The notes below the pieces were generated by a model. That model ran no database searches. It had not been told where the DNA came from and worked only from the letters and a program-made list of their open reading frames with translations. From UHGV virus genome UHGV-0046270: DNA of 24,380 nt; one strand, 5' to 3'. The translations under genes and the position numbers were made by a program. Shown piece by piece: positions 1,823-19,267 of this stretch. This DNA comes from a virus. The first letter of the stretch is position 1. Each line of letters opens with the position of its first letter.

Positions 1823-2107
1823 TTATTCAGTGCCGATATTTACCTTTATCGCGTATACCTTTACCGGTTTATCACCGAAGTGCGGATGTGTGATTGTCTT
1901 CACTTCATATCCGTCATACGGAACATCAACTCTGCGGCTGGAATCGTCGCGCTTCGGATATCCCTTTGTGATAATCAGGCGGTCATGCTTACGGTTAACG
2001 AGGCGCTTTTTCCAGTAGTCATTACACAGGCGATACTCTTCCGTTTTCTCTCCGCGAATCATGGCATCGAAGTATTCACCTTTAACGGCAAGTTGCAGGT
2101 TAGCCAC
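1823..2107 (-). CDS. Hypothetical protein, possibly ASCH/PUA-like; start set at GTG 2107
   Basis: ORF 1823-2191; GGAG then 6 nt before GTG at 2107, which overlaps the upstream stop (GTGGCTAA); upstream ATG would overlap the previous gene by 90 nt. Confidence 0.35.
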   Translation of the reverse strand: MANLQLAVKGEYFDAMIRGEKTEEYRLCNDYWKKRLVNRKHDRLIITKGYPKRDDSSRRVDVPYDGYEVKTITHPHFGDKPVKVYAIKVNIGTE

Positions 2108-2840
2108 GGTTAACTCCTTGCTGTGTGGCGTCGAGTAATAAATCCCACAACCGCTGAGAGCAATTTCCGCATGTACAGCGTTGACCCACAACGTTTATCG
2201 CGTTGCTGATTTCCGGCGTTACCTGTTTAGGAACCATAACCCAACCATCCGGAGTTACCGGAAGCGAGAACGGCAGCACATCTCTGTGAACAAGTTTTTG
2301 CTGTGACAGGTTATCCAGAACTTTCTGTACTGCTGCATCACCGAATACACCAAGCGCATCTGCCATAACTCCTACAACCTGATAAGCCTCAGCGCATACC
2401 GTGGATAAACCATCCGGAATTACCGGAGAGTTGCCGGGTTCTTTAATGTGCAAGCGAGGCTCACCATCTTTTGGCTCAGGCCACTGGCGCTCCATGTTGA
2501 TCTTCAATTTATCTTCCATAGCAACGGTAATTTCAGCATCGCTGATGCCAGCACGGCGCTGTGCATCCCACAACAGAAACTGCATATCAGCCCACTCGCT
2601 AAGATCGTCTGGTTCGGCTGCGGCTTCCAGTGCCTCTTTTGAGAGGTGTTTCAGTGGACCAATGGGGCCAACGCAGCCAAATGTGGAGTCAGACCATTTG
2701 GCATGCTCGTGGCGAATCTGTTCGCGTTCCAGTGATGCCAGTGCAATTCGTGCTAGTTCCATTTGTTCGCCACGAGTAAGCCCGTTTTCAAGCGGATTTT
2801 TAATGAACAATTCAATACGTTCTTTGGTAATAGTGGTCAT
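2100..2840 (-). CDS. Hypothetical phage accessory protein (246 aa)
   Basis: N-terminus (ELARIALASLERE) is paralogous to the 3599-3853 product (AYEIALASLEEN); carries NSPVIPDG motif shared with the 3048-3581 product. Confidence 0.5.
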   Translation of the reverse strand: MTTITKERIELFIKNPLENGLTRGEQMELARIALASLEREQIRHEHAKWSDSTFGCVGPIGPLKHLSKEALEAAAEPDDLSEWADMQFLLWDAQRRAGISDAEITVAMEDKLKINMERQWPEPKDGEPRLHIKEPGNSPVIPDGLSTVCAEAYQVVGVMADALGVFGDAAVQKVLDNLSQQKLVHRDVLPFSLPVTPDGWVMVPKQVTPEISNAINVVGQRCTCGNCSQRLWDLLLDATQQGVNRG

Positions 2841-3854: not shown

Positions 3855-4619
3855 TCAATCTCCATTGGTATCAATGTTTACAGCCTGACAAGACTCTTTG
3901 AGCACCCAGTCAATAGCGTCTTTCCATGCCTCTGTTTCGACTGGTGGATTTTCACGCTTAACCTGTTCATAGAAGCGCACTGCTTTAACCAGTCCTTCCG
4001 GTACTACTGGTGATGGCTGTTTAGCTTCTAAATCAGCAATTCTGTCAACCACGGCATCGACAGCATCTGAAAAGCCGAACCAGTTGCTCCACTCCGGCTC
4101 ATCCCCGGTTGCTGCAAAGTACATATCTGCTAAAGCAGATTCAGCATGGTCACGCTCGTTAATGAGTTGCTCTTCGCTTTTCTCCAGTTCAGCAATACGC
4201 TTACCCCCATCCGAGATAACACCTTCGTAATACTCACGCTGCTCGTTGAGTTTTGATTTTGTCTCCTCAAGCTCAACTCTCAGCTTCCCAACAGTAAGAG
4301 CAATATCCTCGTTCTCCTGGTCGCGGCGTTTTATGTATTGCTGGTTTCTTTCCCGTTCATCCAGCAGTGCCAGCACAGTAGCCGGATTGGCTGCGGCGAT
4401 GAATTCAGCATTGGCCTGCTGTTCCATTTGGAAATCTTCATCGAAACCGCTTTCTGGATGCGCTCCTTCAATTCTGCAAATGGGAATATATCCAGCAACT
4501 TCACGATGAATTAGCGCATAATCACCATCAAATCGGCTCTCTCCATATTCGAGCGACCACTCACCACACGTTGCTTTTTCTGCCGCTTCACGCAGTGCCT
4601 GATAGTTAATTTCGCTCAC
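3855..4619 (-). CDS. Coiled-coil phage protein, possibly Ead/Ea22-like family
   Basis: 254-aa ORF with a long charged heptad-like central region (LEETKSKLNEQREYYE...ELEKSEEQLINERD); family assignment from memory of prophage annotations only. Confidence 0.5.
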   Translation of the reverse strand: MSEINYQALREAAEKATCGEWSLEYGESRFDGDYALIHREVAGYIPICRIEGAHPESGFDEDFQMEQQANAEFIAAANPATVLALLDERERNQQYIKRRDQENEDIALTVGKLRVELEETKSKLNEQREYYEGVISDGGKRIAELEKSEEQLINERDHAESALADMYFAATGDEPEWSNWFGFSDAVDAVVDRIADLEAKQPSPVVPEGLVKAVRFYEQVKRENPPVETEAWKDAIDWVLKESCQAVNIDTNGD

Positions 4620-7554: not shown

Positions 7555-7687
7555 TTTTTGGGACTCCTGGCTGATTAAGTATGTCGATAAGGCGTTTCCA
7601 TCCGTCACGTAATTTACGGGTGATTCGTTCAAGTAAAGATTCGGAAGGGCAGCCAGCAACAGGCCACCCTGCAATGGCATATTGCAT
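7523..7687 (-). CDS. cIII: cIII (FtsH inhibitor)
   Basis: Manual translation from ATG at 7687 gives 54 aa [54 protein letters not shown], matching lambda cIII; overlaps the kil start in another frame as in lambda. Confidence 0.8.
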   Translation of the reverse strand: MQYAIAGWPVAGCPSESLLERITRKLRDGWKRLIDILNQPGVPKNGSNNYGYPD

Positions 7688-7759
7688 GGTGTGCTCCTTA
7701 TTTATACATAACGAAAAACGCCTCGAGTGAAGCGTAATTGGTATGCGGTAACGCCGCGC

Positions 7760-8310: not shown

Positions 8311-8511
8311 TCAGGCAGCTTTGTTGTTCTGTTTACCAAGTTCTCTGGCAATCATTGCCGTCGTTCGTATTGCCCATTTATCGACATATTTCCCATCTTC
8401 CATTACAGGAAACATTTCTTCAGGCTTAACCATGCATTCCGATTGCAGCTTGCATCCATTGCATCGTTTGAATTGTCCACACCATTGATTTGTATCAATA
8501 GTCGTAGTCAT
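8311..8511 (-). CDS. ral: Ral restriction-alleviation protein
   Basis: 66-aa MTTTIDTNQWCGQFKRCNGCKLQSECMVKPEEMFPVMEDGKYVDKWAIRTTAMIARELGKQNNKAA matches remembered lambda Ral. Confidence 0.85.
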   Translation of the reverse strand: MTTTIDTNQWCGQFKRCNGCKLQSECMVKPEEMFPVMEDGKYVDKWAIRTTAMIARELGKQNNKAA

Positions 8512-8724
8512 ACGGATAGTCCTGGTATTGTTCCATCACATCTTGAGGATGCTCTTCGAACTCTTCAAATTCTTCTTCCATATATCACCTTAAATAGTGG
8601 ATTGCGGTAGTAAAGATTGTGCCTGTCTTTTAACCACATCAGGCTCGGTGGTTCTCGTGTACCCCTACAACGAGAAATCGGATAAACTCTATTCACCCCT
8701 ACAGAGAGCAAAAGAGAAACGCCG

Positions 8725-9595: not shown

Positions 9596-9693
9596 GGATT
9601 CCTCCCGAATAAACTTTGGCGATGCAATCTCGAAGCTCCTCCTGAGACGGTTGCTTCGGCATTGCATCCCACAGCTTATGTGGTTGGGTGATC

Positions 9694-9739
9694 TGGCTTT
9701 TCAGCCACGTAGTCGAGAGTCGACGTTGTTTAAAGAGCC
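9694..9739 (-). promoter_or_regulatory. nutL: boxA-like GGCTCTTTA, 23-nt spacer, boxB hairpin TGGCTGAAAAGCCA
   Basis: Minus-strand GGCTCTTTA-aacaacgtcgactctcgactacg-TGGCTGAAAAGCCA; same architecture and spacer length as the nutR candidate at 12375-12420. Confidence 0.6.
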
Positions 9740-9784
9740 TGCCAGTCTGTTCCATTTGGCTTCCAGCGTCCTGCTGACGGTTAA

Positions 9785-9813
9785 ATAGTACGATATGTAC
9801 TTTACAAGATCAA
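9785..9813 (-). promoter_or_regulatory. Candidate pL with overlapping OL operator
   Basis: Minus strand reads TTGATC-17 nt-TACTAT; palindrome AGTACGATATGTACT at 9787-9801 overlaps the -10; related motif occurs in the OR region. Confidence 0.45.
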
Positions 9814-10000
9814 TACAATTTGTTGTAAGTTGGCGTGGTTTTTTATAACGCTTTGTATTTAATAGTGTTGTTTTTTAGCGTGGATGTATTGCCTCGGCGA
9901 TGTAAGGAGAGATCAGAATTGCGTGGTTTAGTGGGTTGCATCTATTTATTTTTCAATAAATATAATTGGTTATGTGTTTTTAGGTGGGCGAACGTGAGGC

Positions 10001-10026
10001 AAAGAAAACCCGGCGCTGAGGCCGGG
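10001..10026 (-). terminator. Intrinsic terminator ending the cI-downstream operon
   Basis: Hairpin cccggc-gctgag-gccggg (10009-10026) 5 nt after the stop at 10032, with plus-strand aaagaaaa (minus U-run) at 10001-10008. Confidence 0.6.
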
Positions 10027-10031
10027 TTGTA

Positions 10032-10784
10032 TTATGCTGCAAGTCTCTTAACCCAAGTCTCTCTTTTGGAGAATGGTAGAACTTGGCTTGATTCATGGAA
10101 GAGTAAGGAGAGTTGTTGCATTTGATCACCAATTGCTTCGCTGTCTATAACAACAAATCTGTTGTTATACTCCTCACTTGAAGCTTTAAGATCAATTAGT
10201 TTCCCAAGCAATGAGTAAGCACTATTCCAGCTTCCTCCGTGTTTCACGCTTGATGTAAAAACGTATTTAGGTATGTCGGTTTTTATTGTTACAGGGACGG
10301 TAATTTGATGTCCACTCAAGCCATATACGTTTTCACGAAGAGAAAGTGCGTCTCTAAGCTCTGTGTGATATAGATAATCAATAACCATACTTTCAAACTT
10401 TTCAGCTTGAACTGGCTGATACCAGTCTAACGACAAAGTTGATGCGAGTATACCAGCTCTAATTATGTTCGATGTAATCGCACCGACATCCTTTTCTGTT
10501 GCCCAAGCAATGATTTCTCCTCGAGCATTGAGTTCTGCGCCTTCTTTAAGCAGTAATTGTCGTATCTCATCAAGTCGTTTTTTGGTAAGCGAGATCCCTC
10601 TTGCCTCCATATTCATTAAGGCATCGCATCTGTCACTAACTAAATACCTACCATTGACTTCACGGATAAAGGCACCGACATGCTCTCCATCATCACAGTA
10701 AGTGAATGGACTGATAATTCTCAAGGTCTTGCCTATTGGATGGCATTCGAAACCTAGTTGTGAGATCACTGTTGAGCACATCAT
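10032..10784 (-). CDS. Hypothetical protein (250 aa), distal gene of the immunity-region cassette
   Basis: Long ORF in AT-rich DNA; start overlaps the upstream stop (ATGA); no Walker or other catalytic motif recognised. Confidence 0.6.
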   Translation of the reverse strand: MMCSTVISQLGFECHPIGKTLRIISPFTYCDDGEHVGAFIREVNGRYLVSDRCDALMNMEARGISLTKKRLDEIRQLLLKEGAELNARGEIIAWATEKDVGAITSNIIRAGILASTLSLDWYQPVQAEKFESMVIDYLYHTELRDALSLRENVYGLSGHQITVPVTIKTDIPKYVFTSSVKHGGSWNSAYSLLGKLIDLKASSEEYNNRFVVIDSEAIGDQMQQLSLLFHESSQVLPFSKRETWVKRLAA

Positions 10785-11338
10785 ATTCCAAACCCCATTT
10801 GCCCCGACTCATCTTCAAGCGGTAAAGGTATTCTCCCAGAGTAAGTTATGTTCAGATGTTTACAGAAGTAATTCCAATACCCTACCAGGTCATCTGGGTT
10901 TATGTCATCTTCGATTGGAAACGCTATTCTATCACTATAGTATCCAGCTTCTTCATAGTATACATGGTAGTGAGCACCGTAAATGATATCTTGGTACTTC
11001 GGATGATCGACCTTGTAACTATTCGTGTGTTTGTCAAAGTGATAGGTATCTACCGCGAAAACCCTCTTGTTATGATAGAAAGCAATAATATTTATTTTAG
11101 GGTAAGAAATCGGGTCATCAGGTTCTGAATCCTGATCTGGTTTCCATTTCAGTTCAAACTTTAGCCCTTGTATAGGTATACAATCCTCATCCAAGGGGAT
11201 GATATGGGCTTGTAGCCACATATCAGAGCGACTTGGTTTCTGTTTCCATTTAACGCCAGAAAAGTTAACTATTTTTTTACAATAAAGTACTTTATCAACT
11301 TCTACTTGGCTTGGCTGATAATCATCTATTTTTGCCAA
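10781..11338 (-). CDS. Hypothetical protein (185 aa), proximal gene of the immunity-region cassette
   Basis: Long ORF starting 39 nt downstream of the cI stop; aromatic/acidic-rich; no recognised domain. Confidence 0.6.
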   Translation of the reverse strand: MAKIDDYQPSQVEVDKVLYCKKIVNFSGVKWKQKPSRSDMWLQAHIIPLDEDCIPIQGLKFELKWKPDQDSEPDDPISYPKINIIAFYHNKRVFAVDTYHFDKHTNSYKVDHPKYQDIIYGAHYHVYYEEAGYYSDRIAFPIEDDINPDDLVGYWNYFCKHLNITYSGRIPLPLEDESGQMGFGI

Positions 11339-11377
11339 TGTTTACCGCCCTGTAAATTGTAGATAAAAGTGGTTTCA

Positions 11378-12079
11378 TCACCCAAACGTCTCTTCAGGCC
11401 ATTGGCTGGCGATAACTTTCCCCACAACGGAACAACTCTCATTGCATGGGATCATTGGGTATTGTGGGTTTAGTGGCTGTAGAAACACCTGACCGCTATC
11501 CCTGATCAGTTTCTTGAAGGTAAATTCATCACCACCAAGTCTGGCTATGCAGAAATCGCCGGGCTCAACAGCTTGCTCAGGGTCAACCAGAATTAACATC
11601 CCGTCAGGAAAGCTGGGTTTGGAACCTGTTGGTGCGGTCATTGAGTTACCTTCAACCTCAAGCCAGAATGCAGAGTCACTGGCTTTTTTGGTTGTGCTTA
11701 CCAATCTCTCCGCATCGCCTTTGGTAAAGGTTCTGAGTTCTGGAGAGAACATCCCAGCCTGAACATGAGAAAAAACAGGGTACTCATATTGTTTTTTAAC
11801 TGGGGCCGATGAGTATTCGCCAACAGGTGAAAATGTCCCGTCGTGGTTGAATGATATGTTATCAATACCAAGGTATTTAAACACCACACCAATATCACTA
11901 AGAGATGGATGACGAGATCCGCGCAACCAGTGTCCAATCCCACCCTGCGTCATACCTAGCTCTTCGGCTAACTTCTCTTGAGTTATGCCGAGCTCTTTCA
12001 TTCTGGATCTAGCCAGTTCATACCATTTCATTTTCATGTCCTTATTATTACGCTCTGTACTGGAACCATCCATGCACAA
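11378..12079 (-). CDS. cI: cI-type repressor (lambda C-terminal domain, heterologous HTH N-domain)
   Basis: Residues from [29 protein letters not shown] to the end match lambda CI; N-terminal HTH ([25 protein letters not shown]) differs; 29-aa N-terminal arm length equals lambda if start is 12079 (alternative start 12031). Confidence 0.85.
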
Positions 12080-12148
12080 TGTGTATTTTTACTTGTATTC
12101 GCAAAGTACATATTGTATTTTTTTATTCGTGTTTACTATGGAGGGCAT
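12080..12148. promoter_or_regulatory. OR region (pR/pRM with operators)
   Basis: Divergent cI/cro intergenic region; AAGTACATATTGTATT (12104-12119) resembles the OL palindrome; TACTAT -10-like at 12134-12139; GGAGG SD before cro. Confidence 0.5.
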
Positions 12149-12364
12149 ATGAGCAACCTACGAAAATATCGAGAGTCACTGAATATCTCTCAAACAACAC
12201 TTGCTAAGGCAGTTGGATGCACACAGGGAGCTATCGGACATTGGGAATCTGGTCGTCGCTTCCCAGACCTTAAAACATGCCGTGCTCTTGTTGCGTGCCT
12301 AAACAAGTTAGGCGCAAAAGTCAGTCTTGATGACGTGTTCCCGCCGGAACACAAAGCCGCTTAA
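12149..12364 (+). CDS. cro: Cro-like XRE-family HTH regulator
   Basis: 71 aa from ATG at 12149 after GGAGGG; HTH LNISQTTLAKAVGCTQGAIGHWESGRRFP shares the TQGxIGHW helix with the cI N-domain. Confidence 0.75.
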   Translation: MSNLRKYRESLNISQTTLAKAVGCTQGAIGHWESGRRFPDLKTCRALVACLNKLGAKVSLDDVFPPEHKAA

Positions 12365-12374
12365 TAAGCGGATC

Positions 12375-12420
12375 CGCTCTTTGTAACAACGGACATTCGT
12401 CCTACGTCGCTGAAAAGCGA
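12375..12420 (+). promoter_or_regulatory. nutR: boxA CGCTCTTTG, 23-nt spacer, boxB hairpin TCGCTGAAAAGCGA
   Basis: Read directly; paralogous to nutL in boxA, spacer length and boxB loop. Confidence 0.6.
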
Positions 12421-12505
12421 GTTCCAAGATATCTGACCAACTAAGGCCATATGCGTTTCCACGCATACCTTTCAACTAACTATTCACTATTGGAAATCTT
12501 AAGAA

Positions 12506-12802
12506 ATGGAAAGAACAAGTTACAGCAAACTATCACAGCGTGACGTTGATCGCGCAGAAACAGATTTACTTATCAATCTGTCAGCTATTACCCAGCGCGG
12601 TCTGGCAAAGATGATTGGCTGTCATGAATCGAAGATAAGCAGAACGGACTGGAGATTTATTGCTTCGGTCTTGTGTGCTTTCGGAATGGCATCAGACATC
12701 AGTCCGATTAGCAGGGCTTTTAAGTATGCGCTTGATGGACTCACCAATAAAAAACGCCCGGCGGCAACCGAGCGTTCTGAACAAATCCAGATGGAATTCT
12801 GA
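12506..12802 (+). CDS. cII: cII-like transcriptional activator (chimeric)
   Basis: 98 aa; C-terminus TNKKRPAATERSEQIQMEF matches lambda CII; N-terminal part divergent. Confidence 0.8.
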   Translation: MERTSYSKLSQRDVDRAETDLLINLSAITQRGLAKMIGCHESKISRTDWRFIASVLCAFGMASDISPISRAFKYALDGLTNKKRPAATERSEQIQMEF

Positions 12803-12835
12803 GGTCATTACTGGATCAATCCACAGGAGTCATTA
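12746..12835 (-). ncRNA. oop: Predicted OOP-like antisense RNA with its terminator inside the cII 3' end
   Basis: Minus-strand 7-bp-stem hairpin (plus 12754-12773) followed by U-run (plus-strand A-run 12746-12753); cII 3' end is lambda-like; 5' end approximate. Confidence 0.45.
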
Positions 12836-13734
12836 TGACAAATACAGCAAAAATACTCAACTTCTGCAGAGGTAACTTTGCCAAACAGGAGCGTAATGTG
12901 GCAGATCTCGATGATGGTTACGCCAGACTATCAAATATGCTGCTTGAGGCTTATTCAGGCGCAGATCTGACCAAGCGACAGTTTAAAGTGCTGCTTGCCA
13001 TTCTGCGTAAAACCTATGGATGGAATAAACCAATGGACAGAATCACCGATTCTCAACTTAGCGAGATTACAAAGTTACCCGTCAAACGGTGCAATGAAGC
13101 CAAGTTAGAACTCGTCAGAATGAATATTATCAAGCAGCAAGGCGGCATGTTTGGACCAAATAAAAACATCTCAGAATGGTGTATCCCTCAAAACGAGGGA
13201 AAATCCCCTAAAACGAGGGATAAAACATCCCTCAAATTGGGGGATTGCTATCCCTCAAAACAGGGGGACACAAAAGACACTATTACAAAAGAAAAAAGAA
13301 AAGATTATTCGTCAGAGAATTCTGGCGAATCCTCTGACCAGCCAGAAAACGACCTTTCTGTGGTGAAACCGGATGCTGCAATTCAGAGCGGCAGCAAGTG
13401 GGGGACAGCAGAAGACCTGACCGCCGCAGAATGGATGTTTGACATGGTGAAGACCATCGCGCCATCAGCCAGAAAACCGAATTTTGCAGGGTGGGCTAAC
13501 GATATCCGCCTGATGCGTGAACGTGACGGACGTAACCATCGCGACATGTGTGTACTGTTCCGCTGGGCATGCCAGGACAACTTCTGGTCCGGTAACGTGC
13601 TGAGCCCGGCCAAACTCCGCGACAAGTGGACCCAGCTCGAAATCAACCGTAACAAGCAACAGGCAGGTGTGACAGCCTGCAAACCAAAACTCGACCTGAC
13701 AAACACTGACTGGATTTACGGGGTGGATTTATGA
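12835..13734 (+). CDS. O: Replication initiator O
   Basis: 299 aa; N-terminus MTNTAKILNFCRGNFAKQERNVADLDDGYARLSNMLLEAYSGADLTKRQFKVLLAILRKTYGWNKPMDRI matches lambda O; ori iterons inside. Confidence 0.95.
   Translation: MTNTAKILNFCRGNFAKQERNVADLDDGYARLSNMLLEAYSGADLTKRQFKVLLAILRKTYGWNKPMDRITDSQLSEITKLPVKRCNEAKLELVRMNIIKQQGGMFGPNKNISEWCIPQNEGKSPKTRDKTSLKLGDCYPSKQGDTKDTITKEKRKDYSSENSGESSDQPENDLSVVKPDAAIQSGSKWGTAEDLTAAEWMFDMVKTIAPSARKPNFAGWANDIRLMRERDGRNHRDMCVLFRWACQDNFWSGNVLSPAKLRDKWTQLEINRNKQQAGVTACKPKLDLTNTDWIYGVDL
13183..13268. repeat. ori iterons (four about 18-bp repeats) inside O, followed by an A-rich stretch
   Basis: atccctcaaaacgaggga (13183-13200), atcccctaaaacgaggga (13203-13220), atccctcaaattggggga (13227-13244), atccctcaaaacaggggga (13250-13268); A-rich 13269-13310. 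Confidence 0.8.
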
Positions 13735-14432
13735 AAAACATCGCCGCACAGATGGTTAATTTTGACCGTGAGCAGATGCGTCGGATCGCCAACAACATGC
13801 CGGAACAGTACGACGAAAAGCCGCAGGTACAGCAGGTAGCGCAGATCATCAACGGTGTGTTCAGCCAGTTACTGGCAACTTTCCCGGCGAGTCTGGCTAA
13901 CCGTGACCAGAACGAACTGAACGAAATCCGCCGCCAGTGGGTTCTGGCTTTCCGGGAAAACGGGATCACCACAATGGAACAGGTTAACGCAGGAATGCGC
14001 GTAGCCCGTCGGCAGAATCGACCATTTCTGCCATCACCCGGGCAGTTTGTTGCATGGTGCCGGGAAGAAGCATCCGTTATCGCCGGACTGCCAAACGTCA
14101 GCGAGCTGGTTGATATGGTTTACGAGTATTGCCGGAAGCGAGGCCTGTATCCGGATGCAGAGTCTTATCCGTGGAAATCGAACGCGCACTACTGGCTGGT
14201 TACCAACCTGTACCAGAACATGCGGGCCAATGCGCTGACTGACGCGGAATTACGACGCAAGGCTGCCGATGAACTGACCTGTATGACAGCGCGAATTAAC
14301 CGTGGTGAGACGATACCTGAACCAGTAAAACAACTTCCTGTCATGGGCGGCAGACCTCTAAATCGTGTTCAGGCGCTGGCGAAGATCGCAGAAATTAAAG
14401 CTAAGTTAGGACTGAAAGGAGCAAGTGTATGA
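13731..14432 (+). CDS. P: Replication protein P (DnaB helicase loader)
   Basis: 233-aa product matches remembered lambda P (MKNIAAQMVNFDREQMRRIANNMPEQYDEKPQVQQVAQIINGVFSQLLATFPASLANRDQNE...). Confidence 0.95.
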   Translation: MKNIAAQMVNFDREQMRRIANNMPEQYDEKPQVQQVAQIINGVFSQLLATFPASLANRDQNELNEIRRQWVLAFRENGITTMEQVNAGMRVARRQNRPFLPSPGQFVAWCREEASVIAGLPNVSELVDMVYEYCRKRGLYPDAESYPWKSNAHYWLVTNLYQNMRANALTDAELRRKAADELTCMTARINRGETIPEPVKQLPVMGGRPLNRVQALAKIAEIKAKLGLKGASV

Positions 14433-14719
14433 CGGGCAAAGAGGCAATTATTCATTACCTGGGGACGCATAATAGCTTCTGTGCGCCGGACGTTGCCGCG
14501 CTAACAGGCGCAACAGTAACCAGCATAAATCAGGCCGCGGCTAAAATGGCACGGGCAGGTCTTCTGGTTATCGAAGGTAAGGTCTGGCGAACGGTGTATT
14601 ACCGGTTTGCTACCAAGGAAGAACGGGAAGGAAAGATGAGCACGAACCTGATTTTTAAGGAGTGTCGCCAGAGTGCCACGATGAAACGGATATTGGCGGT
14701 ATATGGAGTTAAAAGATGA
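14429..14719 (+). CDS. ren: Ren (Rex-exclusion resistance)
   Basis: 96 aa MTGKEAIIHYLGTHNSFCAPDVAALTGATVTSINQAAAKMARAG... matches lambda Ren. Confidence 0.9.
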   Translation: MTGKEAIIHYLGTHNSFCAPDVAALTGATVTSINQAAAKMARAGLLVIEGKVWRTVYYRFATKEEREGKMSTNLIFKECRQSATMKRILAVYGVKR

Positions 14720-17449: not shown

Positions 17450-17615
17450 TATGCAATTGTTTACTAAAAGTTATTAAAAATGGGGCGTGGAAACGCCCCC
17501 AAAATAAAGGGTAATATATAACAGAAGGTTTATATAGTCAGAAGCAAGATAGTGCTTCTAAGGAAAGTGGCTTGAGGGGGCCACTTATATGTTGGGGGGG
17601 GGAAAACCCCCCCCA

Positions 17616-17625: not shown

Positions 17626-17709
17626 TAAAGGGTAATATATAACAGAAGGTTTATATAGTAAGAAGCAAGGTAGTGCTTCTAAAGGAAGTGGCTTGAGGGC
17701 TCCACTTAT

Positions 17710-17748
17710 ATGTTGCGGAGGCAAAGCCTCCCGCAACATATCTTTTTC
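17710..17748 (+). terminator. tR'-like intrinsic terminator downstream of Q
   Basis: Perfect 13/14-bp stem atgttgcggaggc-aaa-gcctcccgcaacat followed by tcttttt. Confidence 0.6.
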
Positions 17749-17758
17749 GTAAGTCAGA

Positions 17759-18841
17759 TTAGAACTGATAAACCAGACCTACAGCGACGATGTCGTCGGT
17801 ATCAATACCAGCTGTTTTGGTAAACTTACTATCGTCAATTAAGTTGATTTTGTAATCAACAAAAGTGGACATGTTTTTATTAAAGTAGTAAGTAGCACCG
17901 ACATCGACATACTTGACTAAGTCTCGGTCACCATGAACACCAAGGTCTTTACCTTTTGACTGAAGGTAAGCAACAGATGGACGCAGACCGAAGTCAAACT
18001 GATATTGTGCTACTGCTTCAAAGTTTTGTGCTTTGTTTGCAATATGGTTATTACCAAAAACGGTCATATTCTGAGTTTCAGAATATGTGGTAGCCAGATA
18101 GATATTGTTCGCATCATATTTCAGGCCTGCAGCCCATACTTCCGCATTTTTGCCGGAGGCATTGAATTTGCTCTTACCATAGGCGACCTGACCGTCAGTG
18201 CGATCTGATTTAGCATAGGTTGCACCCACGCCGAATCCTTCATACTCATAAGTAGTGGAGAAACCGAAACCATCACCGTTAGCTTCAGTTACGTCAGTGC
18301 GGTCATTTTTACCCTGATACTGAGCAGCAAAGTTCAGGCCATCGACCAGACCAAAGAAGTCGTTGTTACGATAAGTTGCAACACCAGTAGTGCGACCAGT
18401 CATGAACACATCTGTTTGGGTCCAGGTATCACCACCGAATTCTGGCAGAACGTCAGTCCACGCACCGATGTCGTATGCTACACCGTAGTTACGGCCGTAA
18501 TCGATTGAGCCGTAATCACCAAATTTCAGGCCTGCAAATGCAAGACGGGTTTTGTCTTTGGAAGAACCTTGAGATTCAGCACGGTTGCCTTTGAATTCAT
18601 ATTCCCACTGACCGAAACCAGTCAGTTGATCGTTGATTTGGGTTTCACCTTTGAAGCCAAGACGGGCATAAGTAGTATCACCATCATCTGCATCATTAGA
18701 GGAGAAGTAGTGCTTGGCATTAACTTTCCCGTATAGATCCAGCTTGTTACTGTCTTTATTATAAATTTCAGCTGCCTGAGCAGACATCGCCATCAGTACT
18801 GATGCAGCTACAGCAGAAATTGCCACTGTTAATTTTTTCAT
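17759..18841 (-). CDS. nmpC: OmpC/OmpF-family outer-membrane porin (prophage NmpC/Lc-type)
   Basis: Signal peptide [30 protein letters not shown] mature N-terminus, C-terminal ...VGLVYQF; AAGGG SD before ATG 18841; location between Q and the lysis genes as in DLP12. Confidence 0.85.
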
Positions 18842-19267
18842 TGTACGCCCTTTTTTTGAACTTTTATTAAAAAATGATGTCACTGCGCGATAAATATTCA
18901 TCTAATCAATGTGATTATTTCAAGATGTAAGTTTTAGTTTCTCATTTAATTTGTGAAGTAGATCTCTATTTTTATCTGAACCTTTTCTATCTAATCCTAT
19001 TCATGGCTCTTGTCTGAACAAAAATAAATCTATTAGCTAATTTATATTAATGGCACTTATTTATAAGTGCTCTATAATTCTTTAGCTTAATTTAAACAAA
19101 CTAAAAATAACATCGGAAATTATTAACTGGTTATTTGTTGAAGTTTTCTTATGCATTTGTGGTGGTGTTTTGAACACTCGGTGGCATTCTCACAAATATC
19201 ATTTAGTAGTTTACGTACGTAAAAAATTGGTTATGCTGTTAAGAGTGGTTACTTCGTCACACAGCTT

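Follow-up and report, generated by a model that had tools for sequence, protein, structure and literature searches.

A mosaic lambdoid immunity region of the VT2-Sakai/Nil2 type in a lambda-like phage of Escherichia coli

Results

The repressor gene cI

The window (the whole stretch of DNA analysed, 24,380 nt of the virus genome UHGV-0046270) carries a cI repressor gene on the minus strand at 11378–12037. It encodes 219 aa from an inferred ATG at 12037 and contains the Pfam domains HTH_3 (E 2e-10, residues 23–70 of the annotated protein) and Peptidase_S24 (E 1.3e-28). The N-terminal HTH DNA-binding domain (11789–12037, minus strand) is of the VT2-Sakai/Nil2 "CI2c" type and has the recognition helix TQGGIGHW, and the C-terminal part (11378–11788, minus strand) comprises a linker with the Ala-Gly cleavage site and the S24 dimerisation/autocleavage domain. 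The top match in a search of solved structures was the full-length lambda repressor (3bdn, E 2.6e-96). When aligned to lambda CI, PDB 3bdn and 8gmu, the motifs VQAG, GNSM and FKKL correspond to the cleavage site A111-G112, S149 and K192 of lambda CI, and by its HTH domain, S24 Ser/Lys dyad and Ala-Gly site the protein belongs to the LexA/lambda-CI-type autocleaving repressors.

The mechanical ORF spans 11378–12079 (minus strand) and the database-annotated CDS 11378–12073. The ATG at 12037 is probably the start that is used: it aligns with the start of the homologous cI of phage Oslo, whose product begins with MNWYD, and in the window as well as in Oslo this ATG is preceded at 6 nt by a -10-like hexamer. 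With the RefSeq/GenBank start (12073 in the window), the protein is probably 12 residues too long, and this extension overlaps OR3 and OR2.

It had been predicted that the C-terminal domain of the repressor matches lambda CI while the N-terminal HTH does not, and this proved correct as regards specificity and DNA sequence. Among the 136 C-terminal residues 135 are those of lambda CI, and over 411 nt (137 codons) there are 27 differences, which amount to 26 synonymous codon changes and one replacement (W129L). In blastn, window positions 11377–11788 aligned with lambda 37226–37637 at 93.4% identity, and no match to lambda was detected upstream of this block within the N-domain. There, 19 of 101 aligned residues (~19%) are identical to lambda CI, and nucleotide identity is 53%, compared with 49.4 ± 1.5% in shuffles. 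The breakpoint at 11788/11789 is sharp: the switch takes place within a few codons in the inter-domain linker, and the first 83 residues are ~19% identical to lambda. The N-domain is a remote homologue of that of lambda, since HMMER aligns it to 3bdn and ~12 of 27 residues are identical across helices 2–3; the mismatch with lambda therefore concerns specificity and DNA sequence, not the fold. Its relatives elsewhere are the repressors of VT2-Sakai, Nil2, the Stx1-converting phage and Stx2 phage II, to which it is at least 98.8% identical (98.8–100%), followed by those of ST64T (55%) and of the Salmonella phages Oslo, SPN9CC and g341c (~52%).

Phage repressor DNA-binding domains evolve fast under diversifying selection. 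Together with the remote homology of the N-domain to that of lambda, this would allow the whole repressor to have diverged from lambda CI, with far stronger purifying selection on the C-domain and no recombination at all. However, conservation in the C-domain extends to synonymous sites, and nucleotide identity falls to the random level just upstream. An alignment check for uniform divergence across the repressor, which would tell against a joint, found a sharp identity step instead. Domain similarities are also incongruent: the N- and C-domains are 19% and 99% identical to those of lambda and 52% and 80% identical to those of Oslo, and for phage L/ST64T the values are 55–67% for the N-domain and ~42% for the remainder (residues 31–213 of the phage L repressor; P22 c2 is 36.7% identical over its length). 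Given the step change in synonymous-site identity, divergence without recombination is effectively refuted. The same N-domain family is paired with a lambda-like C-domain in the window and in Oslo and with a P22-distant one in phage L, and this pattern, as judged from sequence comparison, supports domain exchange.

Cro

The cro gene (12149–12364, plus strand, 71 aa) encodes an XRE/HTH_3-type lytic repressor with the recognition helix TQGAIGHW. In the Pfam scan Cro matched HTH_3 (E 4.2e-12), with HTH_31 and HTH_19 as the only other matches and no match to the lambda-Cro family, as the original prediction of an XRE-type protein rather than lambda Cro had it. Among solved structures, an 82-aa "lambda repressor-like protein" and the P22 C2 N-domain come closest to it. 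Cro and the cI N-domain are paralogous (BLASTP, 35% identity over 62 aa, E 9e-13) and, as had also been proposed, share a TQG.IGHW helix. Cro belongs to the XRE/HTH_3 class known from 434, P22 and L, in which Cro is a paralogue of the N-domain of its cognate repressor and carries its helix. It is 100% identical to Cro of Stx2 II, YYZ-2008, 2851 and phi458, and 69% identical to that of phage L, where the helix reads TQGAIGHY. The recognition helices of 434 (TQQSIEQL) and P22 (SNVAISQW) are different, as are the operators of these two phages.

Operators and promoters

Six candidate 15-bp operators with the half-site ARTACAA were found, at OL and OR only. Candidate OR3 (ATTACGCTCTGTACT, 12047–12061), from palindromic motif scans, is centred at -17 of the inferred PRM and is invariant in phi458, Stx2 II and VT2-Sakai though flanking bases vary. 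Candidate OR2 (TGCACAATGTGTATT, 12073–12087; scan score 11/14) is centred at -43 of PRM, and its differences from phi458 are confined to the central bases. Candidate OR1 (AGTACATATTGTATT, 12105–12119) overlaps the inferred PR -10, has the top scan score of the whole window (13/14) and matches ARTACR-N4-GTAYT exactly; it mirrors OL1, with which it forms the longest inverted repeat in 9650–12200. On the left, candidate OL1 (AGTACGATATGTACT, 9787–9801), also from the motif scans, overlaps the inferred PL -10 (TACTAT, 9790–9785, minus strand), candidate OL2 (AATACAATTTGTTGT, 9812–9826) scores 12/14 and is an island kept in comparison with phi458 and Stx2 II, and candidate OL3 (ATAACGCTTTGTATT, 9845–9859) scores 10/14, which is weak alone, and is a fully kept island in comparison with phi458. 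The weak half-site of OL3 is similar to that of OR3. OR3, OR2, OL2 and OL3 coincide with putative operators in AP005154.

Singly, OR3, OL3 and OR2 are weak (10–11/14) and are equalled by several random sites in the window. As a set, all six candidates are conserved islands in comparison with phi458, and the top three palindromic matches of the 24 kb all lie within OL or OR (a score of at least 12 is expected ~0.4 times per shuffle). The operator pattern gave nine matches where 1.7 ± 1.5 are expected, and none of 100 shuffles reached nine. In both OR and OL the sites are identical to those of Stx2 II and VT2-Sakai except for single flanking bases, and phage L has three sites with the same half-site. 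A fourth OR site at 12085–12099 (ATTTTTACTTGTATT; one perfect half-site, score 10), which would fill the 32-bp gap between OR2 and OR1, was rejected, as it is not conserved in phi458.

Centre-to-centre spacing is 32 and 26 bp at OR and 25 and 33 bp at OL, compared with 24 and 23 bp in lambda; phage L has 26 and 34 bp, and in phi458 OR2 and OR1 are set apart by one additional bp. With such spacing, it is uncertain that CI cooperates pairwise as in lambda, despite the identical cooperativity domain. The combination of this domain with a conserved non-lambda spacing (26 and 32–34 bp) might point to a cooperative geometry other than the textbook OR1-OR2 pairing, although we consider this rather doubtful.

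The promoters PR, PRM and PL were positioned by inspection of the sequence, with the AP005154 annotation and analogy as further guides; a sigma-70 consensus promoter scan called none of the three. The inferred PRM (12044–12072, minus strand) consists of a -35 TGGATG (12072–12067), a 17-nt spacer and a -10 AATAAT (12049–12044), with +1 at ~12037, the A of the cI ATG, so that its transcript would be leaderless. Its -35 falls where the AP005154 annotation, carried over by alignment, puts it, and the -10-N6-ATG layout is also found in Oslo. The inferred PR (12093–12121, plus strand; -35 TTGTAT 12093–12098, 17-nt spacer, -10 TATTTT 12116–12121) is a weak match to the consensus, placed no more than 1 nt from the AP005154 annotation.

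With the lambda operator consensus, no match with up to three mismatches was found in the window. The predicted sharing of operators unlike those of lambda by CI and Cro is in line with these putative sites and with their occurrence in phage L, whose Cro helix is nearly identical. They support distinct operators, different from lambda's, and the immunity specificity would accordingly be expected to differ as well. It is improbable that the repressor is cross-immune with lambda despite its different N-domain, i.e., that the specificity has not really changed. According to PMC10742460, Fattah et al. (2000) reported VT2-Sakai and lambda to be cross-immune, which, if real, would blur the claim of a different specificity. 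Helices 2–3 include, among the residues shared with lambda, the Gln equivalent to Q44, and in EMSA lambda CI bound VT2-Sakai operators at 3.7–6.4 µM and its own operators at 0.2–3 µM (PMC10742460). However, micromolar binding is near non-specific, half-sites are ARTACAA here and TATCACC in lambda, and the Nissle "repressor" experiment that seems to support cross-protection used cII, not cI.

nutR, cII and oop

Downstream of cro, nutR (12375–12420, plus strand) comprises boxA (CGCTCTTTGTAACAA, 12375–12389) and a boxB hairpin (TCGCTGAAAAGCGA, 12407–12420; RNA fold). It has the position of the annotated 933W nutR, within a 94.9%-identical block, and boxB has a counterpart (TGGCTGAAAAGCCA) at nutL (9694–9707, minus strand).

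The cII activator gene (12506–12802, plus strand, 98 aa) has a body of the phage 21/933W type and a tail that is the lambda allele. It matches Phage_CII (PF05269, E 7e-34) and is 88% identical to cII of imm21, 84% to 933W, 86% to Stx2 II and 43% to lambda. The original prediction of a lambda-type C-terminus on a divergent N-terminus was accurate: over the final 20 residues, which take up 63 nt when the stop codon is counted, there is no difference from lambda. In blastn, lambda homology begins at 12740 and continues at 97.1% through O, P and ren. The "lambda-type" tail of cII is the part that overlaps the oop RNA gene. All cII genes of this type have such a tail, more or less well conserved, and in the window the block is present as the lambda allele, continuous with lambda-type O and P. 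A candidate cII-binding box, TTGC-N6-TTGT (12515–12528, minus strand), which would form the PRE -35 region, lies within the first cII codons and has one mismatch to TTGC-N6-TTGC. The latter pattern is not enriched in the window (25 matches, 33 expected), and the candidate box is thus supported by its lambda-like and P22-like position (P22 annotation) only. With its domain, its location downstream of cro and nutR, the PRE box in its 5' end and the oop-overlapped 3' end, the gene has the attributes of Phage CII.

The oop antisense RNA module (12740–12860, minus strand) consists of a promoter (TTGAGT-17-CATAAT, 12860–12832), an RNA of ~12825–12745 and a terminator stem (12778–12751) with a T run. 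It overlaps the last ~55–60 nt of cII, its fold has z = -2.4, and P22 is annotated with a like arrangement. An Rfam scan at gathering threshold returned the cIII thermoregulator (7642–7700) only and no oop or nut family, so that the evidence for oop and nutR comes from folds, homology and scans for promoters and terminators.

The "phage repressor pr" gene of E. coli Nissle 1917 is this cII plus part of oop and not a repressor. Protection of K-12 against lambda and Stx phages has been reported for it, and in the pUC19 experiment of Bury et al. (2018) plating dropped ~200-fold; its identity as cII alters the reading of that phenotype.

The rexAB slot

The rest of the cI operon (10007–11338, minus strand) consists of two accessory genes in the rexA-rexB slot (ORFs 10781–11338, 185 aa, and 10032–10784, 250 aa) and a t_imm-like terminator (10028–10007) within a lambda-homologous block (9907–10028). 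The pair matches DUF1828 and, weakly, DUF6978, and in PADLOC PDC-M24B (E 4.7e-10) and PDC-M24A (E 4.8e-4). We regard it as an uncharacterised two-gene cassette of candidate defence genes in a slot expressed in the lysogen. A literature search on DUF1828 and PDC-M24 yielded nothing relevant.

Distribution

The 1.8-kb region is 100% identical to that of phages ev017, ev207 and PhiR57_1 and of prophages in Nissle 1917 and ATCC 25922, and ~96.6% identical to that of VT2-Sakai, the Stx1-converting phage and Stx2 phage II. Of 5426 complete E. coli genomes, 586 have matches covering at least 80% of the 1.8-kb query. In PhiR57_1 and in prophages of at least 190 complete E. coli genomes, the match extends over the whole window at 99.9% identity. 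Two 380-aa ORFs that were suspected to be IS copies are an integrase and a porin, and no long repeat was found.

Discussion

Taken together, positions 9780–12860 very probably represent the complete immunity region of a functional lambda-like temperate phage (ev017/PhiR57_1, here as a prophage) that has the immunity type of VT2-Sakai, Nil2 and Stx2 phage II and is a recombinational mosaic. By its repressor DNA-binding domain, Cro and operators, it falls into the "CI2c / Cro4" group (Smith et al., 2012), which comprises the Stx phages VT2-Sakai (Sp5), Stx2 phage II, the Stx1-converting phage (Morioka), Nil2, 1717 and YYZ-2008. It does not belong to imm-lambda, as it has no lambda-type Cro, no lambda CI N-domain and no 17-bp lambda operators with TATCACCGC-type half-sites. 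For the Stx phages, there is an annotation of the region by Sato et al. (2003; AP005153/AP005154) and an analysis by Fattah et al. (2000). Their repressor C-domain and Cro are 100% identical to those of the window, and the DNA is 96.4–96.7% identical over 11380–12842. The Stx phages, however, carry a 933W/HK022-type cII tail and other O and P genes, whereas the window has the lambda allele from the cII tail rightwards. The cargo of the rex slot differs as well, with one 522-nt ORF in Stx2 II and VT2-Sakai and the DUF6978-like and DUF1828 pair in the window, and the host phage backbone is that of a lambda-like siphovirus (Jouyvirus ev017) in the window and of a podovirus in the Stx phages.

This lambdoid lysis/lysogeny control region is thus a common E. 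coli prophage type, and the exact region was described in Shiga-toxin phages more than 20 years ago. A lambda-identical repressor C-terminus on a unique N-terminus was already described by Smith et al. (2012; "CI2c", "Cro4") and, according to PMC10742460, by Fattah et al. (2000), and the mosaic structure seen in the window is not new (PMC3430580). Our literature search turned up no experiment on the binding, immunity or induction properties of this repressor, no published test of ev017 or PhiR57_1 against Stx2 II lysogens and no paper matching PhiR57_1/ECOR13.

Could the region be an inactive remnant of a defective prophage, as was proposed for prophage 3 of Nissle 1917? That prophage could not be induced by Bury et al. 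(2018; PMC5987069), who called it defective, and in VT2-Sakai a point mutation truncates cI (PMC3430580). We consider this very unlikely for the window, in which cI, cro, cII, N, O and P are all intact ORFs and the cI C-domain is under strong purifying selection, and an identical region is carried by the virion- or plaque-isolated phages ev017, ev207, PhiR57_1 and PhiR63_2.

The functional mosaic would have been assembled by homologous and illegitimate recombination among lambdoid phages. The predicted recombination joints within genes are well founded, since the breakpoints are sharp, not graded, in comparisons with lambda, 933W, imm21, phi458 and VT2-Sakai. The putative joints lie in the cI linker (11788/11789), exactly at the cI stop codon (11377) and at the oop 3' end inside cII (~12740). 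A further joint between cro and cII is indicated in relatives: phi458 has the cI and cro of the window with a lambda-type cII. As the joints fall at domain or module boundaries, every product would stay functional. The window resembles the laboratory hybrids lambda imm21 and lambda imm434, in which a foreign imm module sits in a lambda backbone, and the right-hand joint of imm21 is in the same cII-tail/oop region. Their left joints, however, lie outside cI and the whole repressor is replaced, whereas the joint in the window is inside cI, between the domains.

The polarity of the exchange is a separate question. The window phage might have kept an old N/C pairing, and it might be in the lambda lineage that a foreign N-domain came in, along with a Cro and operators of the lambda type. 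The full-length Oslo homologue has the same pairing, which would therefore predate the split between the C-domains of lambda and the window. In addition, Cro is commonly of the XRE type and paralogous to the N-domain of the repressor, as in 434, P22 and L, and the lambda-Cro fold is exceptional. The C-domain can, however, be equally explained by later homogenisation of an Oslo-like ancestor with lambda, and the lambda-identical flanks (t_imm region, oop-O-P) show free exchange with lambda-like phages. We give this polarity appreciable weight, though less than even; lambda itself may be the recombinant, and the exchange may have run in either direction.

Whichever way the mosaic arose, the mechanism of the switch can be proposed by homology. 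CI dimers would bind three 15-bp operators each at OR and OL via the TQGGIGHW helix and thereby repress PR and PL, and CI at OR2 (near -43) probably activates PRM, from which a probably leaderless transcript starts at the ATG 12037. The C-terminal half would provide dimerisation, higher-order cooperativity and RecA-stimulated self-cleavage at Ala-Gly by the Ser/Lys dyad. The last of these, and hence induction, is expected from the near-identity to the C-terminal part of lambda CI, and the prophage should therefore respond to SOS induction as lambda does. Cro, a small protein paralogous to the CI N-domain as in 434, P22 and L, would bind the same operators and turn off PRM and the early promoters. 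The 21/933W-type cII would activate PRE at the TTGC-N6-TTGT box in its own 5' end, with the putative oop antisense RNA overlapping its 3' end. Gene order and regulatory layout are those of lambda, and the resemblance extends to the t_imm region, the oop-O-P-ren block and the cIII thermosensor; as in lambda, PRM is probably leaderless, with OR2 at about -42/-43. The differences from lambda include the CI N-domain, the Cro fold family, the 15-bp operators with their half-site and spacing, the cII body, the N type and the replacement of rexAB.

It is tempting to speculate, although we consider it rather doubtful, that lambda CI and CI2c could form mixed dimers, tetramers or octamers in one cell and thereby couple the two switches, as their dimerisation/cooperativity domains are identical apart from W129L. 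If so, mixed oligomers could result in negative dominance (destabilised lysogeny and co-induction) or in partial cross-protection. Potentially, they could explain the cross-immunity attributed to Fattah et al. (2000), and through them carriage of both prophage types in one cell could be favoured or disfavoured by selection. In summary, the discovery value of the region is small, but it illustrates cleanly how lambdoid phages evolve by modules: its joints fall at the linker between two domains, at the end of a gene and at the border of a gene for an antisense RNA.

Results

Gene content of the window

A lambda-type integrase gene (50-1192) lies at the left end of the window and is followed by exo/bet, the cIII thermosensor, N, the immunity region, O, P, ren and the nin genes; the right part continues from the nin genes through a porin gene and the lysis genes to Nu1. 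Based on this gene order, the window is the early half of a lambdoid prophage. The cIII mRNA thermoregulator (Rfam Lambda_thermo, 7642-7700, minus strand, 88.5 bits) was the sole Rfam match at gathering level. In the b2/early-left region, a 246-aa ORF (2100-2840, minus strand) with a dATP/dGTP pyrophosphohydrolase domain (PF04447, E 8e-42) adjoins an Ead/Ea22-like gene (3855-4619). The OmpC/NmpC-like porin gene (17759-18901, minus strand; Porin_1, E 2e-151) is complete, is located in the late region before the lysis genes, and stands beside a tandem-like direct repeat of 107 nt (17505-17611 and 17626-17732, 88% identical).

The immunity region harbors cI on the minus strand (11378-12079 as a mechanical ORF, 11378-12073 as the database CDS; Pfam HTH_3 and Peptidase_S24), and cro (12149-12364; HTH_3) and cII (12506-12802; Phage_CII) on the plus strand. 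When the window was compared with lambda by blastn, only four matching blocks were found around this region, with no detectable similarity between them: 8501-8704 (lambda 34277-34480, 96.6%; ral/orf28 region, outside the immunity region), 9907-10028 (lambda 35708-35826, 90%; t_imm region downstream of rexB), 11377-11788 (lambda 37226-37637, 93.4%; the 3' 411 nt of cI) and 12740-14649 (lambda 38591-40500, 97.1%; the last 63 nt of cII, then O, P and ren).

The repressor changes identity at the inter-domain linker

The original prediction, that the C-terminal domain of CI matches lambda while its N-terminal HTH does not, was confirmed. The last 136 residues are identical to lambda CI at 135 positions, the sole change being W129L. 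At the DNA level this part differs at 27 nucleotides; 26 of the codon changes are synonymous and one is a replacement. In contrast, the N-domain (83 residues) agrees with lambda at only 19 of 101 aligned positions, and its DNA is 53% identical (shuffled sequence, 49.4 +/- 1.5%). Uniform divergence across the repressor was not seen; lambda identity begins within a few codons, right after ...KKQ. This switch falls within the linker between the two domains, immediately N-terminal to the Ala-Gly self-cleavage site; that site, like Ser149 and Lys192, belongs to the lambda-identical part. Cro is XRE-type as proposed (HTH_3) and a paralogue of CI (E 9e-13), and both indeed carry the predicted TQG.IGHW helix (TQGGIGHW in CI, TQGAIGHW in Cro).

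The cII joint coincides with the edge of oop

The body of cII is of the phage 21/933W/Stx type (identity to imm21 88%, 933W 84%, Stx2 II 86%, lambda 43%). In the DNA alignment this type extends to about 12739, and from CTCACCAATAAAAAACGCCCGG onwards the sequence is base-for-base lambda, which bears out the predicted lambda-type C-terminus on a divergent N-terminus. A promoter-like site at 12860-12832 on the strand opposite cII, combined with a strong intrinsic terminator at 12778-12751, defines a putative oop-like antisense RNA; a similar arrangement is annotated in P22. The joint therefore lies at the 3' edge of the oop gene, with oop travelling together with the lambda-type O-P replication module. 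The right-hand crossover of the laboratory hybrid lambda imm21 lies at the same place. Phage phi458 combines cI and cro of the window type (92.8%) with a lambda-type cII, and therefore has a further natural joint between cro and cII.

Candidate operators differ from those of lambda

Each 15-mer of the window was given a score for its match to the half-site ARTACAA paired with its inverted copy. The best three were OR1 (12105-12119), OL2 (9812-9826) and OL1 (9787-9801), with about 0.4 such sites expected per shuffled window; OR2 (12073-12087), OR3 (12047-12061) and OL3 (9845-9859) are weaker candidate matches. A looser palindrome pattern gave nine matches (1.7 +/- 1.5 expected), six of which are OL1, OR1 and OR3, each on both strands. 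OL1 mirrors OR1, and the pair makes up the longest inverted repeat of the region. All six candidates are conserved islands in comparison with the diverged phi458, where the spacers between sites vary, and they coincide with putative operators annotated in the Stx2 phage II GenBank record. The OR of phage L (L011, 1392-1466) has three sites with the same half-site at 26/34-bp spacing, and phage L Cro (helix TQGAIGHY) is 69% identical to that of the window; these sites lend independent support to the candidates. No lambda-type operator was found in the window even with three mismatches allowed, which supports the expectation of operators distinct from lambda's.

Measured from centre to centre, neighbouring sites are 32 and 26 bp apart at OR and 25 and 33 bp apart at OL, compared to 24 and 23 bp in lambda, and a 1-bp insertion between OR2 and OR1 is tolerated in phi458 (L004). 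The spacing is unlike that of lambda although the cooperativity domain is 99% lambda, and lambda-type cooperative binding is not assured at this geometry.

Putative promoters and the probable start of cI

On the minus strand, a -10-like AATAAT (12049-12044) lies 6 nt upstream of an ATG at 12037, and a -35-like TGGATG is found 17 nt further upstream. These positions would make the A of the ATG the first base of the PRM transcript, a leaderless mRNA as in lambda, and would centre OR2 near -43 and OR3 near -17. The same arrangement (TATAAT-N6-ATGAAAATG) recurs in phage Oslo, where the annotated cI start is the aligned MNWYD. Together, the -10-like position and the Oslo arrangement and start point to a leaderless PRM transcript from 12037 and a CI of 219 aa. 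With the annotated cI starts (12073 in RefSeq/GenBank, 12079 in the mechanical ORF), the reading frame extends over OR3 and OR2, and the 12-residue extension from 12073 is probably spurious. Putative PR (TTGTAT-17-TATTTT) and PL (TTGATC-17-TACTAT) overlap OR1 and OL1, respectively, by 4 nt each; a consensus promoter scan called none of the weak putative promoters PRM, PR and PL. Both nutR and nutL consist of boxA plus a boxB hairpin with a GAAAA loop.

Genes in the rex slot

The rexA-rexB slot of lambda is held by two overlapping minus-strand genes of PHROGs 2017 and 1960 (10007-11338 with the terminator). One (10781-11338, 185 aa) matches DUF6978 weakly and PADLOC PDC-M24A (E 4.8e-4), the other (10032-10784, 250 aa) DUF1828 and PDC-M24B (E 4.7e-10). 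They are followed by a lambda-homologous, t_imm-like terminator, and in a lysogen they would share a transcript with cI. Potentially, the pair is a lysogen-expressed defence cassette; a literature search on these families (DUF1828, PDC-M24) returned nothing relevant.

Discussion

Phages ev207, ev017, PhiR57_1 and PhiR63_2 and prophages of Nissle 1917, ATCC 25922, NU14, APEC O18 and others carry the 1.8-kb region at 100% identity; a Stx1-converting phage and Stx2 II carry it at 96.6%, and VT2-Sakai at about 96.4%. Among 5426 complete E. coli genomes, 586 contain at least 80% of the region. Over its full length, the window matches PhiR57_1, as well as prophages in at least 190 complete genomes, at 99.9% identity. 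Prophages of the window type are interrupted by ISEc52 (IS3 family) in ATCC 25922, Seattle 1946 and related genomes, and by an IS21-family element in MS 200-1; the window itself lacks both insertions.

This repressor type was named CI2c and the Cro type Cro4 (Smith et al., 2012, PMC3430580). A lambda-identical C-terminus on a unique N-terminus was described there and also by Fattah et al. (2000, Genes Genet Syst 75:223), the latter as cited in PMC10742460. Therefore, the hybrid repressor and immunity region is already known. VT2-Sakai/lambda cross-immunity was reported by Fattah et al., again as cited in PMC10742460, and lambda CI binds VT2-Sakai operators only at micromolar concentrations (PMC10742460). 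By its sequence, the region is assigned to the CI2c/Cro4 immunity group, not to lambda immunity.

The 'phage repressor pr' (EcN_1294) of Nissle 1917 prophage 3 was reported by Bury et al. (2018, PMC5987069) to protect K-12, with the plating of lambda and Stx phages reduced about 200-fold. The published qPCR primers map to 12703-12720 and 12743-12761 and the cloning primers to 12460-12478 and 12809-12829. Since all four fall at cII/oop, the cloned gene is cII plus the start of oop (12460-12829) and not cI.

Most likely, the immunity region works as a standard lambdoid bistable switch. Whereas the sequence relationships are observed, the binding, cooperativity and cleavage steps are predicted from homology. 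CI would repress PR and PL and autoregulate PRM, with Cro competing for the same sites. PRE would be driven by cII via a TTGC-N6-TTGT box within the cII 5' end and oop would oppose cII, while SOS induction would proceed by RecA-stimulated cleavage of the lambda-identical part of CI.

Similarity to the window CI is incongruent between domains: 19% in the N-domain and 99% in the C-domain/remainder for lambda, 52% and 80% for Salmonella phage Oslo, and 55-67% and about 42% for phage L/ST64T. This incongruence supports recombination joints inside genes, as originally suggested. Phage-database repressors with a C-domain at least 95% identical form two sets, the lambda-immunity phages and the CI2c-type family. 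As Oslo shows, the N-domain family of the window CI has long been paired with a lambda-like C-domain. Given this old pairing, it may be the lambda lineage itself that changed its N-domain and Cro.
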